Below, in pieces: positions 36,118 through 39,464 of a DNA stretch of 64,000 nt. The notes below the pieces were generated by a model. It had not been told where the DNA came from. It did not search any database and was given only the letters and a program-made list of their open reading frames with translations. The stretch comes from an uncultured Clostridium sp. (GTDB lineage: Bacteria; Bacillota; Clostridia; Clostridiales; Clostridiaceae), in contig NZ_CAMQZG010000012.1 in the NCBI RefSeq assembly GCF_947039605.1, positions 9,771 to 73,770 on the forward strand, given 5' to 3'. Numbering within the stretch: the first letter of the stretch is position 1; each line of letters begins with the position of its first letter. A program made the position numbers and the translations under genes.

Positions 36118-36370
36118 ATGGACTTAGTAGATAAATTTATTGAAGATTTGCCAGCACAACACCAAAGTATTCAACCAGGAATAGAGGAAGATATGATACC
36201 ACTGCCTATTTATGAAATGGAAGGTTATGATTATTCTTGTAATAGATTAAAGGACAAGGTTGCAATTATAACAGGTGGAGATAGTGGAATTGGAAGAGCT
36301 GTTGCGATTGCCTATGTTAGAGAAGGTGCAAAAGTAGTAATTTCATATTTAAATGAAGATGTAGATGCAT
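36118..36370 (+). CDS. YdaD/YhdF-type SDR (general-stress-protein-39-like), 5' exon interrupted by the IStron
   Basis: [10 protein letters not shown]...[38 protein letters not shown]. The DNA-level ORF runs into intron sequence and stops at 36396. Confidence 0.75.
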
Positions 36371-36427
36371 ACAAAACAGTAACAAATAGTTTATAAATCG
36401 TAATAAAAAGATTATAAAAATATAAAC

Positions 36428-36810
36428 TATAAAGCTGCGTATGTTGAGAAATTAGCATAGGACACAGATTTAATTGCAGGTAATGGGTAAAGCCTTACAC
36501 CACAATATGGGCGAAAGCACTATATCACGGTACGAAAGTAGAAAAAACGTAAGGATAAATATATGGTTAAATCCTAAGTGTTTATAAACAATCCTTGTTC
36601 ATGCAGGTAAGCTCCTAAGTCAAAAGATATGGAGAAACTTCAACGACTATCGGTTGAGATACCGAGTAAAGCCCTAAGTGATTGAGGGAAGAAAAGGTCT
36701 GCCCTAAACACATAATGGTGTAGGTGAAGAAATAGTCTTTGCACTCTAGGAAACTAGGTGGTCATTAGAGTAATCGAAATGACATCATATAAGTAGCGTT
36801 ATATGGTAAA
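36428..36810 (+). ncRNA. Group I intron ribozyme core (5' part of the IStron)
   Basis: P7 strands GACTAT (36645-36650) and ATAGTC (36732-36737, followed by TTT) resemble the Tetrahymena-type GACUA/UAGUCUUU core. There are multiple local helices, and a paralogue at 39845-40330 shows compensatory changes. Confidence 0.7.
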
Positions 36811-36903
36811 AGGATATAAACTTTATAATTAAATGTAAATACTTTATAATTTTTATAGACTTCTAATACAGATGTGTTATTATATTTGTAGGAGGTGGTC
36901 GCA

Positions 36904-37512
36904 ATGAAAAAATATTCGATAGGTCAGTTTGCTAAAAAAATTAATAAAACACAACAAACACTCCGTAACTGGGATAAAAATGGAAAGTTAAAGCCACAAG
37001 TAGTTGATTCTGATACTGGATATAGATATTATACAGAAAAACAACTTAAAGAGTTTTATGGAGAGATTAGTAATAAAGAGAGGTTAGTTATAGGATATTG
37101 TAGGGTTTCTAGTGCTAAACAGAAAGAAGCGTTAGAACGACAAGTTGAAAATGTACGAACTTATTTAATTTCAAAAGGTTATCAATTTAAGATAATAACC
37201 GATATTGGTAGTGGTATAAATTATGATAAAAAAGGGCTTAATCAATTAATTCAACTTATTTTACAAGATGAAGTTTCTAAGGTTGTCGTATTGTATAAAG
37301 ATAGATTAGTTAGATTTGGATTTGAACTTATAGAAAATATATGTGACTTTAAATCTGTTGAACTAGAAGTTATTGATAATACTGAAAAGTTAGAGGAACA
37401 AGAGGTTGTAGAAGATTTAATTCAAATAATCACAGTATTTAGTTGTATGCTTCAAGGAAAGAGAGCAAAGAAAACTAAAGCTATGATTAAAGAGTTGGCT
37501 AATAATGATTAA
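36904..37512 (+). CDS. tnpA: IS607-family transposase TnpA (MerR-like HTH plus serine recombinase)
   Basis: HTH YSIGQFAKKINKTQQTLRNWDKNG, then the catalytic region VIGYCRVSSAKQ. RBS AGGAGG is present. The 3' end overlaps the tnpB start. Confidence 0.85.
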   Translation: MKKYSIGQFAKKINKTQQTLRNWDKNGKLKPQVVDSDTGYRYYTEKQLKEFYGEISNKERLVIGYCRVSSAKQKEALERQVENVRTYLISKGYQFKIITDIGSGINYDKKGLNQLIQLILQDEVSKVVVLYKDRLVRFGFELIENICDFKSVELEVIDNTEKLEEQEVVEDLIQIITVFSCMLQGKRAKKTKAMIKELANND

Positions 37513-38677
37513 AGCAATTAAAGTAAAACTATATCCTACTAAAAAACAAGAAGAGTTAATGTGGAAAAGTGCTGGTGTAGCTAGGTTTTCTTATAATTGG
37601 GGACTAAATTATTTAAATAACTATTATGAAGAAAATAAAAAATCTCTATCAATAGGAAATTTAAGAAAAGTCTTTACAGAGATTAGAAAATCAGAAGAAT
37701 ACAAGTGGTTGAAAGAAGTTTCTTCGGAGATACCACAACAAGCACTTAAAGATTTAGGAGATTCGTTTCAACGATTTTTCAAAAAAGAATCTGACTATCC
37801 TAAATTTAAAAGAAAAGGCAAATGTCAAACCTCATTCTTTCACCTAAACAATAAATTTGTTGTTGAGGATAACTATATCAGGTTAGAAAAGATAGGTTAT
37901 GTAAAAATGAAAGATGAAGATAGACTACCAGTTGGAAACTATAAAAAAGATGAAATTAAAGTCTTAAATCCTAGAATAAAACATAACGGAAAGTTTTGGT
38001 ATTTAGCACTTGCTTTTGAGTGTGAAGATAATACAAAGGAAGAACTAACAGGCGAAAGTGTAGGAGTAGATTTAGGCATTAAGAATTTAGCAATAGTTTC
38101 TAATTTTGAAAAAACTTTTAAAAACATTAACAAATCTAAAGAAATGAGAAGATTAAATAAGAAACTTAAAAGACTATAAAGACAAGTTTCAAGAAAATAT
38201 GATATGTTGAAGGATGGCAAAGTTTTTGAAAAAGGTCAAAAACTTATTAAAACTCAAAATATCATAAAACTTGAAAAAGAAATTAAACTTGTTCATAAAA
38301 AAATTGCAGATATTAGATTAAATCATATACATCAAAGCACAAATGCTATCGTGAAAACCAAGCCTAGCAGAGTTGTTGTAGAAGATTTAAATGTTAAGGG
38401 TATGATGAAAAATAAATACTTAGCTAAAGCAATTTCAGAGCAATGTTTCAATAAGTTTATAACTATTCTTAGTCATAAATGTAAGTGGAAAGGTATTGAG
38501 TTTGTAAAAGCAGATAGATTCTTTCCAAGCAGTAAAATGTGTTCTTGTTGTGGAACTATAAAAAAAGACTTGCAACTAAAAGATAGGACTTATATATGTA
38601 TAAATGATAAGTGTAATCTTATAATGGATAGAGATAAAAATGCAAGTTTTAACTTAGCAATGTATAAATTAGCTTAA
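37505..38677 (+). pseudogene. tnpB: TnpB (IS1341/OrfB-type RNA-guided nuclease) with a single in-frame TAA at 38177-38179
   Basis: ORFs 37505..38179 and 38204..38677 are in the same frame, separated only by one stop (..LKRL*RQVSRK..). RuvC D (VGVDLGIKNLA), E (VVVEDLNVKGM), zinc finger (CSCCG...CINDKC) and D (MDRDKNASFNLA) are all present. Confidence 0.85.
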
Positions 38678-38841
38678 AAAATCAAATTAAAAGATTAAGC
38701 TAATATGTAGGCAATGACGAGGTCGAATTTAAGCCTTTGGAGAATTATATCAAATAGAAGTAGCTTTAGAGTGAAACTAGATTCAATGAAAAAGGAAATA
38801 GAACTATAAAAATTATAAAGCATTTATAAGGAATTATAGAG

Positions 38842-39464
38842 TTTATACGTCAGAAAGTATTATAAAAAGTAGAGGTGGAGAGTGTCTTTTGGTTAGAGGA
38901 GATATTACAGAAGAGGATATGTGTAAAGAAGTAGTGAATCAATGTGTGGAGAGGTTTGGGACAGTTGATATTCTTATAAATAATGCAGCAGTTCAGTATC
39001 CACAATATGATATTTGTGATATTACAAAGGAGCAACTTTTAAAAACTTTTAAAACTAATATTTTTTCTGCATTTTATCTTTCAAAAGCAGTTATTCCATA
39101 TATGAAACTTGGGTCTTCTATAATTAATACAACTTCTATAGTTGCGTATAGAGGGAATGAAAAACTTATAGATTATTCATCTACAAAAGGAGCTTTGACT
39201 AGTTTTACAAGGTCACTTGCACTTAATTTAGCTGATAAAGGAATTAGAGTTAATGCAGTTGCCCCAGGACCAGTTTGGACACCTCTTATAGTTTCATCAT
39301 TTAGTGCACAGGATGTTAAAAAGTTTGCAGAGAATAGAGAGTTCTTTAGAGTTGCACAACCAGTTGAAATTGTAGAACCTTATGTCTTTTTAGCTAGTCA
39401 AGCAGGTTCATATACTACAGGGACTACTATTCATGTAGATGGAGGTAAAATTGCTAATACATAA
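38842..39464 (+). CDS. YdaD/YhdF-type SDR, 3' exon
   Basis: The frame is open back to 38802. Sequence reads ...YTSESIIKSRGGECLLVRGDITEED...ILINNAA...YSSTKGA...HVDGG, which is the contiguous continuation of the 36118 fragment. Confidence 0.75.

Follow-up and report, generated by a model that had tools for sequence, protein, structure and literature searches.

The 64,000-nucleotide stretch of DNA analyzed here (hereafter the window), from an uncultured Clostridium sp. (contig NZ_CAMQZG010000012.1; G+C content 29.9%), carries a gene for a YhdF/YdaD-type short-chain dehydrogenase/reductase (SDR) that is split at the DNA level by an IStron—a group I ribozyme combined with the tnpA and tnpB genes of an IS607-type insertion sequence (IS). 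On the plus strand, an open reading frame (ORF) at 36118..36396 begins with 87 codons of a classical SDR N-terminus, TGGDSGIG motif included (Pfam adh_short); the rest of the SDR lies in a frame that stays open from 38802 to 39464 and gives a Pfam adh_short_C2 match of 7.9e-51. About 0.5 kb without a long ORF follows the first half, ~0.43 kb of it structured RNA, and tnpA and tnpB come next. An initial annotation of the locus had recognized both halves of the SDR gene and had placed structured RNA, tnpA, and tnpB between them; all of these are present, but tnpB is not intact, as it is interrupted by a TAA codon. Its overall reading, an IStron whose removal restores the SDR frame, survived every test that we ran. 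The element lies in sense orientation after an ACAG sequence, at codons 86-88 of the SDR gene; the locus should not be annotated as a simple pseudogene, and its correct conceptual mRNA joins position 36379 to position 38854. The coordinates of all features are collected in Table 1.

Joining 36379 to 38854 in silico gives a 290-amino-acid (aa) SDR with the cofactor motif, NNAA, and the catalytic YSSTK, and this product aligns without gaps to 15 orthologues. The eight best uninterrupted orthologues are likewise all 290 aa long, in a ranking that leaves out P0010, a 200-aa fragment from the window itself; the top orthologue (P0001, 91% identical) has the same sequence as the joined product across the junction, ..DVDAYKT followed by ESIIKSRGGECL.. 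The metagenome scaffold that encodes P0001 (L028) has the same upstream neighbor, a 257-aa SDR, and serves as the empty site that a comparison with related genomes had been hoped to supply: its 873-nt gene matches window positions 36118-36379 plus 38854-39464 over 873/873 nt without a gap, at 86% identity, and its uninterrupted junction reads TATAAAACAG followed directly by AAAGTATTATAAAG. Over these 873 nt the comparison finds no lesion in either exon.

Further copies of the element, found by scanning for TnpA in one genome per species, fix its ends independently. There are six of them in five other assemblies: two in a Sarcina metagenome-assembled genome (MAG) and one each in Clostridium tarantellae, Anaerophilus nitritogenes, Alkaliphilus hydrothermalis, and a Clostridiaceae MAG. 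The right end, TATACGTCAG, is exact in all six and aligned with window position 38853, every copy finishing in ..CGTCAG. At the left, where one copy (L006) has no end and the comparison covers five, two copies (L004, L005) have TAACAAATAG itself and three (L007, L008, L026) have the near-identical TAAACAATAG, TTACAATAAG, and TAACAAAAAG. The right flanks of the copies are unrelated and diverge immediately after the end, and the left flanks are alike only in (A/T)ACAG. Since the orthologues, the syntenic empty site, and the six further copies agree, we place the boundaries between G36379 and U36380 and between G38853 and A38854. A scaffold from another sample (L032, 99.6% identical) begins inside the right end, at 38765, and so has the same junction between right end and exon 2.

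Because CAG precedes both ends of the element, the deletion can be written in four registers that give one and the same product; among these, only the pair G36379 and G38853 lets the intron end in G. The ACAG target motif appears to serve more than one part of the element—its CAG is the exon strand of the P1 helix, its AG is presumed to be the core dinucleotide of recombination, and the whole motif, judged by the insertion sites, is the predicted transposon-adjacent motif (TAM) of TnpB. Joining the flanks at four other copies also restores plus-strand ORFs, of 288-570 aa, and at two of these four sites a Pfam domain (Lactamase_B; CinA MoCF) spans the joined flanks. All five intragenic copies of this lineage stand in sense orientation, as expected if tolerance of the insertion depends on splicing.

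The RNA at the 5' end of the element is a group I ribozyme of class IA2. The Rfam Intron_gpI model (RF00028) matches over its full length at 36435-36760, with 38.9 bits and E 1.5e-8 in a search of 461 nt only, and by blastn the segment 36531-36746 matches Twort-like phage genomes and C. botulinum plasmids. An nhmmer profile built from six close copies finds homologues along its full length in the introns of a C. botulinum plasmid IStron (2e-64), a C. gallinarum IStron (3e-62), phage Alsa_1 (Twortvirinae; 3e-29), and the experimentally studied CboIStron (1e-26). With the helices from P2 to P9.2 written out, the P3/P7 pseudoknot included, and the pairs counted on six copies, 98% of cells are paired and 38 of 95 pairs show compensatory changes on both sides. 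When partners are slid by 1-3 columns, pairing drops to 36-44% and compensatory pairs to 1-7, and none of 500 shuffles equals the real alignment. All 95 modeled pairs are standard in the window copy, whose core motifs are likewise undamaged. P7.1/P7.2 and P9.1/P9.2, which characterize class IA2, are present and covary, except P7.1, which is invariant in the six-copy alignment. P3 covaries; P7 is invariant and so uninformative on covariation, yet it fits the universal GACUA/UAGUC. The P7 that had been picked out by eye, GACTAT with ATAGTC, indeed falls on the RF00028 P7 consensus and is unchanged in nine of nine aligned relatives.

Longer searches with the same model behave differently: there is no Intron_gpI match in the 64-kb window at the gathering threshold, nor in a 2.8-kb stretch at E<=10. 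As a control, CboIStron (L002) and a Twortvirinae phage intron likewise went without an RF00028 match in a 14.6-kb search, whereas CboIStron (L002, 2914-3149) scores 58.1 bits, above gathering, in a 0.6-kb search. Because short searches recover both the window intron and CboIStron, we regard the misses in these three longer searches (2.8 to 64 kb) as a filter artefact: the speed filters of cmscan drop group I introns from long searches, a validated IStron included. The absence of a covariance-model hit, by which the initial annotation had proposed to judge the intron, is therefore unusable for rejecting such elements, and the check itself comes out in favor of the ribozyme once the search is kept short.

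The P1 pairing, which had escaped identification by eye, joins CAG and the first intron base, U36380, to an internal guide sequence, GCUG. Guide and target covary within one alignment column, as CAG with GCUG (or ACUG), AGG with GCCU, and, in CboIStron, GGG with GCCC; a single-sequence minimum free energy (MFE) fold also includes P1 (z -3.1). At the 5' junction, ..ACAG/UAAC.., U36380 stands opposite G36434, a partner that is A instead of G in three copies. Like its counterparts in other group B IStrons, the U.G pair comes one nucleotide downstream of the point at which cleavage is predicted. RNAalifold proposed another long-range partner for the exon bases (columns 9-11 of alignment A2 with columns 458-460, ~36820-36822), which we rejected, as it is P1 with GCUG that covaries with the target across lineages.

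Of the two transposition genes, tnpA appears intact. Its likely start, ATG 36904, is preceded by AGGAGG, within a mechanically called ORF (36895..37512) that opens at GTG 36895, and four further copies, distributed over three assemblies (L004-L007), encode homologues that are 89-96% identical. The nearest named matches to TnpA, as to the MgtA encoded downstream, are from Sarcina sp. MAGs; the host itself probably belongs near Sarcina/Clostridium sensu stricto. The tnpB gene is broken into two ORFs of the same frame, 37505..38179 and 38204..38677, by a codon that is TAA here and CAA (Gln) in five homologues; the stop replaces Gln225, and the RuvC motifs are otherwise kept. With the stop repaired, the protein matches NF040570 (RNA-guided endonuclease TnpB) with 293 bits, and its closest solved relative is 8IAZ (E 1.3e-66). 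TnpB protein is thus probably not made from this copy. Two related copies, both from Sarcina MAG WFFMC_MAG_022, have also lost tnpB function: one (L004, 3485-5044) is without the stretch equivalent to window 37520-38424, most of tnpB, and the other (L006, 1-2332) has an independent nonsense codon at Trp68. These three copies suggest that tnpB decays recurrently while ribozyme, tnpA, and ends persist.

A long inverted repeat of 45-50 base pairs, more than 80% AU, encloses the ORF region downstream of P9.2; its arms pair with -39.8 kcal/mol in RNAduplex (shuffles, -12.8), and it is kept in every copy. The right end of the element also carries the guide-RNA (omegaRNA or reRNA) scaffold of TnpB, in which the core is a RAGATH-18 motif; RNAs of this family are guide RNAs of IS607 TnpBs (PMC11061315), and the motif likewise matches the right ends of CboIStron and of another C. 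botulinum IStron. Across ten right ends, the scaffold structure is 92% paired and 20 of its 38 pairs are compensatory; the pseudoknot pairs in all ten, with changes on both sides in four of its five pairs. The 3' arm of the inverted repeat and the terminal stem-loop of the scaffold use the same bases, so the intron-competent and guide-competent folds are mutually exclusive, an exclusion that has been shown experimentally for CboIStron (bioRxiv 10.1101/2023.11.20.567912; PMC13521648).

Table 1. Positions and supporting evidence for the IStron, its RNA and protein parts, and the interrupted host gene.
Feature	Position	Strand	Evidence or remark
Whole IStron, 2,474 bp	36380..38853	+	TAACAAATAG ... 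TATACGTCAG; ends set by six copies elsewhere; deletion restores the 290-aa SDR and the gap-free match to the empty site
SDR exon 1	36118..36379	+	87 codons plus first base (G) of codon 88; ORF, Pfam adh_short, orthologue alignment, ungapped L028 nucleotide match through ..AAAACAG
SDR exon 2	38854..39464	+	stop codon included; NNAA and YSSTK; Pfam adh_short_C2, alignment, empty site
Target motif ACAG	36376..36379	+	sole conserved left-flank sequence at 6/6 insertion sites with a left flank; also at the empty site
Group I (IA2-type) ribozyme	36380..36812	+	RF00028, nhmmer homology, covariation, MFE fold
P1	36377-80 / 36434-37	+	
Internal guide sequence GCUG	36434..36437	+	pairs with exon CAG and first intron base U36380; relatives' column and MFE fold
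P1 extension	36386-95 / 36421-30	+	
P2	36440-47 / 36452-59	+	
P3	36465-71 / 36695-701	+	
P4	36475-78 / 36602-05	+	
P5	36485-87 / 36593-95	+	
P6	36612-15 / 36631-34	+	
P7	36645-50 / 36732-37	+	
P7.1	36651-54 / 36661-64	+	
P7.2	36672-75 / 36685-88	+	
P8	36703-11 / 36718-24	+	
P9	36742-60	+	
P9.1	36761-83	+	
P9.2	36784-807	+	
5' arm of long AU-rich inverted repeat enclosing the ORFs	36815..36865	+	blastn self-match; RNAduplex
tnpA, IS607-family serine recombinase, apparently intact	36904..37512	+	Pfam MerR_1 and Resolvase; NF033518 210.9 bits (cutoff 110)
tnpB, RNA-guided nuclease gene	37505..38677	+	one in-frame TAA, 38177-38179; Pfam HTH_OrfB_IS605, OrfB_IS605, Cas12f1-like_TNB
Guide-RNA (omegaRNA/reRNA) scaffold	38700..38853	+	5' limit approximate; RF03064, covariation
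Nexus stem-loop	38710-24	+	scaffold part
RAGATH-18 core	38734-38797	+	RF03064 68 bits (gathering score 44.9)
3' arm of inverted repeat	38799..38847	+	overlaps guide-RNA terminal stem-loop
Terminal stem-loop	38804-38839	+	scaffold part
Pseudoknot PK-1 / PK-2	38715-19 (UGACG) / 38848-52 (CGUCA)	+	
Last intron base (omega-G), also last transposon base	38853	+	all copies end ..CGTCAG and flanks diverge next; sole G among four equivalent registers
Predicted omegaRNA guide portion, start of exon 2	38854..38873	+	AAAGUAUUAUAAAAAGUAGA; deduced from its place just 3' of the scaffold; 20-nt length taken from ISFba1 TnpB (PMC11061315)

The inverted repeat also bears on where the element came from. Intron-less IS607 relatives (L009, L010, L011-L013, and L015-L018, several of them in Clostridium manihotivorum) share tnpA/tnpB and guide-RNA similarity with the window; in L009 and L010 this similarity begins at window positions 36787 and 36822, at the 5' arm, and the C. 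manihotivorum copies stop at 38815. Because the similarity of the intron-less relatives starts there, the arm may be the left end of an ancestral IS607.

From these parts, and by analogy with the homologous IStrons that have been studied, we consider it probable (about 0.8) that this is a group B (IS607-type) IStron whose ribozyme splices at 36379/38854 and restores the SDR frame, with excision and guide function of the kind known from those homologues. CboIStron is the precedent, for which splicing, excision by TnpA, cleavage by TnpB with omegaRNA, and a mutual antagonism between these activities have been described (bioRxiv 10.1101/2023.11.20.567912; PMC13521648). In the unspliced mRNA, translation would stop at 36394. 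The 5' 433 nt would fold into the IA2 ribozyme, with CAG and U36380 held by GCUG in P1, and the inverted repeat would extrude tnpA, tnpB, and the greater part of the guide-RNA scaffold as a loop, bringing the 3' tail ..ACGUCAG to the ribozyme core. Splicing initiated by GTP after G36379 and then after G38853 would join ..AAAACAG to AAAGUAUU and give an uninterrupted 290-aa frame; the predicted junction in the spliced RNA reads ..GCATACAAAACAG followed by AAAGTATTATAAAAAG.. Folded locally instead, the right end would form the scaffold of the TnpB guide RNA—nexus, RAGATH-18 core, terminal stem-loop, and pseudoknot—and the first ~20 nt of exon 2 would act as the guide, directing cleavage of the empty ACAG site; the scaffold and intron folds would compete. 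As tnpA looks intact, excision of this copy is possible; as tnpB is dead by one CAA>TAA change, there would be no self-restoring RNA-guided homing unless another copy supplies TnpB. By analogy with CboIStron, a copy without TnpB should also be free of TnpB repression of splicing, and would be expected to splice more, not less.

Several points weigh against this interpretation. Splicing of this copy is argued from the behavior of relatives, the RF00028 score is below the Rfam gathering score (38.9 vs 50), and the nonsense codon in tnpB marks the onset of decay in this copy. Mutations in the terminal trinucleotide of CboIStron severely compromise all three of its activities (PMC13521648), and this lineage has AG/CAG in place of the group B GG/CGG, so that function here depends on compensating changes, which we infer from the sequence. 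Natural IStrons, moreover, range from highly efficient splicing to ~2% apparent splicing, the latter figure, from C. senegalense, being put down to low-level DNA excision rather than splicing (bioRxiv 10.1101/2023.11.20.567912); given so wide a range, the SDR could be strongly hypomorphic. It is conceivable, though we think it rather unlikely, that the IStron is real but that splicing of this particular copy is weak or absent, leaving the SDR gene a knocked-out or strongly hypomorphic pseudogene whose intact exons reflect a recent insertion. The tnpB lesion here and the decay of the related copies L004 and L006 would fit such a history, as would the competition of terminal stem-loop and inverted repeat for the same bases, since omegaRNA structure represses splicing in CboIStron (bioRxiv 10.1101/2023.11.20.567912). 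The SDR gene is also dispensable in this group: two related Sarcina MAGs lack it in the syntenic region (L030, 4930-6000; L031, 5090-6000), where the order is 257-aa SDR, small ORF, mgtA; in the L028 scaffold the gene is intact. On the other side stand the fully standard ribozyme pairing and intact core of the window copy, the lesion-free exons, the sense orientation of every intragenic copy, and the expectation that loss of TnpB raises splicing.

The remaining alternatives concern where, and whether, an intron is removed. The initial annotation had placed the splice sites after U36370 and G38841, giving ..DVDA-F-YTSESII.., a pair that leaves the frame intact and conforms to the classical group I pattern, in which U precedes the 5' splice site and the intron ends in G. 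It is off by 9 and 12 nt. Its product, 291 aa long, would contain one residue more than any of the 15 orthologues at this place and would read FYTS instead of YKT, where 15 of 15 orthologues conserve xKT(E/K); the nine nucleotides that it assigns to the intron (36371-36379, ACAAAACAG) also occur in the empty site and belong to the host exon, and the twelve that it assigns to the exon (38842-38853, TTTATACGTCAG) are element sequence, conserved to the last base in the six other copies. Position 38841 lies inside an inverted-repeat arm, and no guide sequence pairs with ..GAUGCAU. The error arose because a U was demanded before the 5' splice site, a rule that fails for group B IStrons, whose 5' exons end in G and whose introns begin with the U (PMC4227781); for BcISt1, which splices after G in vivo, this is proven by sequenced ligated exons and intron circles (PMC4227781). 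The pair is already refuted at the DNA level, and we give it practically no weight. Just as little probability attaches to a plain IS607 insertion with a long 5' untranslated region in place of a ribozyme and a simply disrupted gene. The failed Intron_gpI searches of 64 kb and 2.8 kb would favor that reading, but they are filter artefacts, as the 461-nt match and the CboIStron intron, 58 bits and still missed in 14.6 kb, make clear; intron-less IS607 relatives (L009-L013, L015-L025) lack the ribozyme region altogether, and strong covariation, homology to known ribozymes, and the RF00028 match already refute it.

Downstream of the SDR gene we noticed a second group I intron, without an ORF, at 39817 to ~40362 (core 39856-40250) on the plus strand, in the ~1-kb leader between the SDR stop at 39464 and the start, at 40464, of the gene for a Mg2+-translocating P-type ATPase (mgtA). 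RF00028 scores 50.9 bits on 39856-40250, at the gathering score, and the IStron-ribozyme profile matches 39913-40286 (E 2.8e-17). Its putative P1 is the same as that of the IStron, GCAG/U (39813-17) with GCUG (39848-51), its candidate 3' end is ..AACAG at 40362, and among plasmid sequences it is most closely related to the introns of other C. botulinum IStrons. Both Sarcina MAGs, whose MgtA proteins are 91% and 89% identical, have the intron conserved at this position, as does the 99.6% identical scaffold; in one of the MAG loci (L031), C replaces the candidate terminal G and J6/7 differs. Four mgtA loci that are more distantly related (L033-L036) lack the intron; we tried them as empty sites, and their leaders are too diverged to align. 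Neither an M-box nor any other Rfam family reached its gathering score upstream of the Mg2+-ATPase genes in the window (39465-40463) and six related loci (L030, L031, L033-L036). By eye, the leader in the window ends in a terminator-like hairpin and U-run at ~40358-40405; the idea that splicing of the second intron alters this hairpin was dropped, as by eye the hairpin forms either way. Elsewhere in the window, and unrelated to the IStron, is a SAM-I riboswitch (RF00162, 80.4 bits; 16369-16469, plus strand).

Among the closest known systems is the experimentally studied CboIStron, an IS607-family IStron from plasmid p1 of Clostridium botulinum BKT015925 (Zedaveinyte et al., bioRxiv 10.1101/2023.11.20.567912; Mortman & Sternberg, PMC13521648). 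The two elements share order and strand—IA2 ribozyme, tnpA, tnpB, and a RAGATH-18-type scaffold with pseudoknot, with the 3' splice site at the right end—as well as a 5' exon ending in G, an intron starting with U, and an inverted repeat around the ORFs; the intron cores are homologous over their full length, and the tnpA/tnpB DNA is ~67% identical. The exons of CboIStron, once ligated, reproduce its DNA donor joint (bioRxiv 10.1101/2023.11.20.567912). The two elements also differ: the target and TAM is ACAG here vs TGGG in CboIStron, the right end ..GUCAG vs ..AUCGG, the guide sequence GCUG vs GCCC, J7/9 UUUG vs UACG, and PK-1/PK-2 UGACG/CGUCA vs CGAUAC/GUAUCG; from RAGATH-18 core to right end there are 56 nt here and 87 nt in CboIStron. 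The present tnpB also has a nonsense codon, and while CboIStron is experimentally validated, the activities of this element are predicted from sequence.

Within the classification of Tourasse, Stabell & Kolsto (2014, PMC4227781), the element resembles BcISt1 and other group B IStrons in its IA2 intron with P7.1/P7.2 and P9.1/P9.2, which lies at the 5' end of the element and shares the orientation of the IS genes; in its IS607-type ORF A, a serine recombinase, and ORF B (TnpB) downstream, both after P9.2; in its long inverted repeat of more than 80% AU; in a predicted 5' splice site that follows G, the intron opening with U; and in the lack of a target duplication. As in that group, the ends of the transposon and of the intron are the same, and taking the element out precisely restores the host gene in silico. 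It departs in its ACAG target and TCAG end, found in all seven copies, from the group B consensus (PMC4227781), in which the target sites (AGGG, TGGG, or GAGG) finish in GG and the 3' end is CGG. The one group B exception described there, CsISt1 of C. sporogenes, has an AG site and a CAG end, and the present lineage is like it by description; CsISt1, however, is described with ORF B only, and a very distant ORF B, whereas both ORFs are present here, and the hosts of this lineage (the Sarcina/Clostridium relative, C. tarantellae, Anaerophilus, and Alkaliphilus) fall outside the 2014 survey. A GG/CGG-type IStron on C. botulinum plasmid pRSJ19_2 (L001, 2918-4935), whose intron matches that of the window at 2e-64, carries an opposite-strand small ribbon-helix-helix ORF and tnpB; it lacks tnpA and interrupts a phage tail (Dit-like) gene.

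Other relatives share single parts of the element. Group A IStrons such as CdISt1 of Clostridioides difficile (IS200/IS605-type) also combine an IA2 intron with an IS that carries tnpB and is spliced from host mRNA, and they too have a TCAG 3' end; in contrast to the serine recombinase and G-ending exon found here, they have a tyrosine (HUH) TnpA and T-rich pentanucleotide targets ending in U, and their inverted repeat is short and compositionally balanced. Twort-type phage introns, also IA2, have the same P3-P9 architecture and a core 71-77% identical over ~165-215 nt; they are unlinked to an IS607 transposon, the annotation of the matched phage locus (L003) shows neither tnpA nor tnpB, and the present element has tnpA, tnpB, and a guide-RNA scaffold between ribozyme core and 3' splice site. 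The IS607 TnpB-reRNA system of ISFba1 (Cell Res 2024, PMC11061315; PDB 8IAZ) likewise has RAGATH-18 just downstream of tnpB. That study treats such elements as TnpB-reRNA systems, leaving an intron component undescribed, and its TAMs are AGGAG or GAGGG, mostly the AG-ending AGGAG, compared with ACAG here. Given the CsISt1 exception and the mostly AG-ending TAMs of RAGATH-18-linked IS607 TnpBs, we regard the ACAG specificity as unusual, not unprecedented.

The terminal trinucleotide has recently been claimed to be the point at which transposition and excision, RNA-guided cleavage, and splicing converge (Mortman & Sternberg, PMC13521648), and the present lineage differs from its CGG-type relatives in matched positions of target, P1 guide, J7/9, and pseudoknot—a natural experiment on that claim. 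Target base A36378 pairs with U36436 of the guide sequence; A38852, at the second-last position, has as its partner in PK-1 U38715, which is C in CGG-type elements, and, judging from the alignment, likely has U36740 in J7/9 (UUUG vs UACG) as its P9.0 partner. We tentatively suggest, at somewhat less than even odds, that the lineage represents an IStron naturally retargeted to AG sites from GG sites, in which one end change, CGG to CAG, has been accommodated in five overlapping functions, and that a TnpB-less copy such as this one is a constitutively splicing intron still excisable by TnpA. The five functions may be the core dinucleotide and target ACAG, the TnpB TAM, the P1 guide GCUG, the P9.0 partner in J7/9 (UACG to UUUG), and the C-to-U change in PK-1. 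Provided that all five work, it illustrates how evolution can still change a sequence locked by three activities, as the CboIStron mutagenesis describes it, and it would offer a second set of TAM, guide, and splice sites for testing the CboIStron model. IStrons themselves are well known, from the 2014 survey and from mechanistic work of 2023-2026; the element described here belongs to a little-described ACAG/..CAG branch of the IS607-type IStrons.

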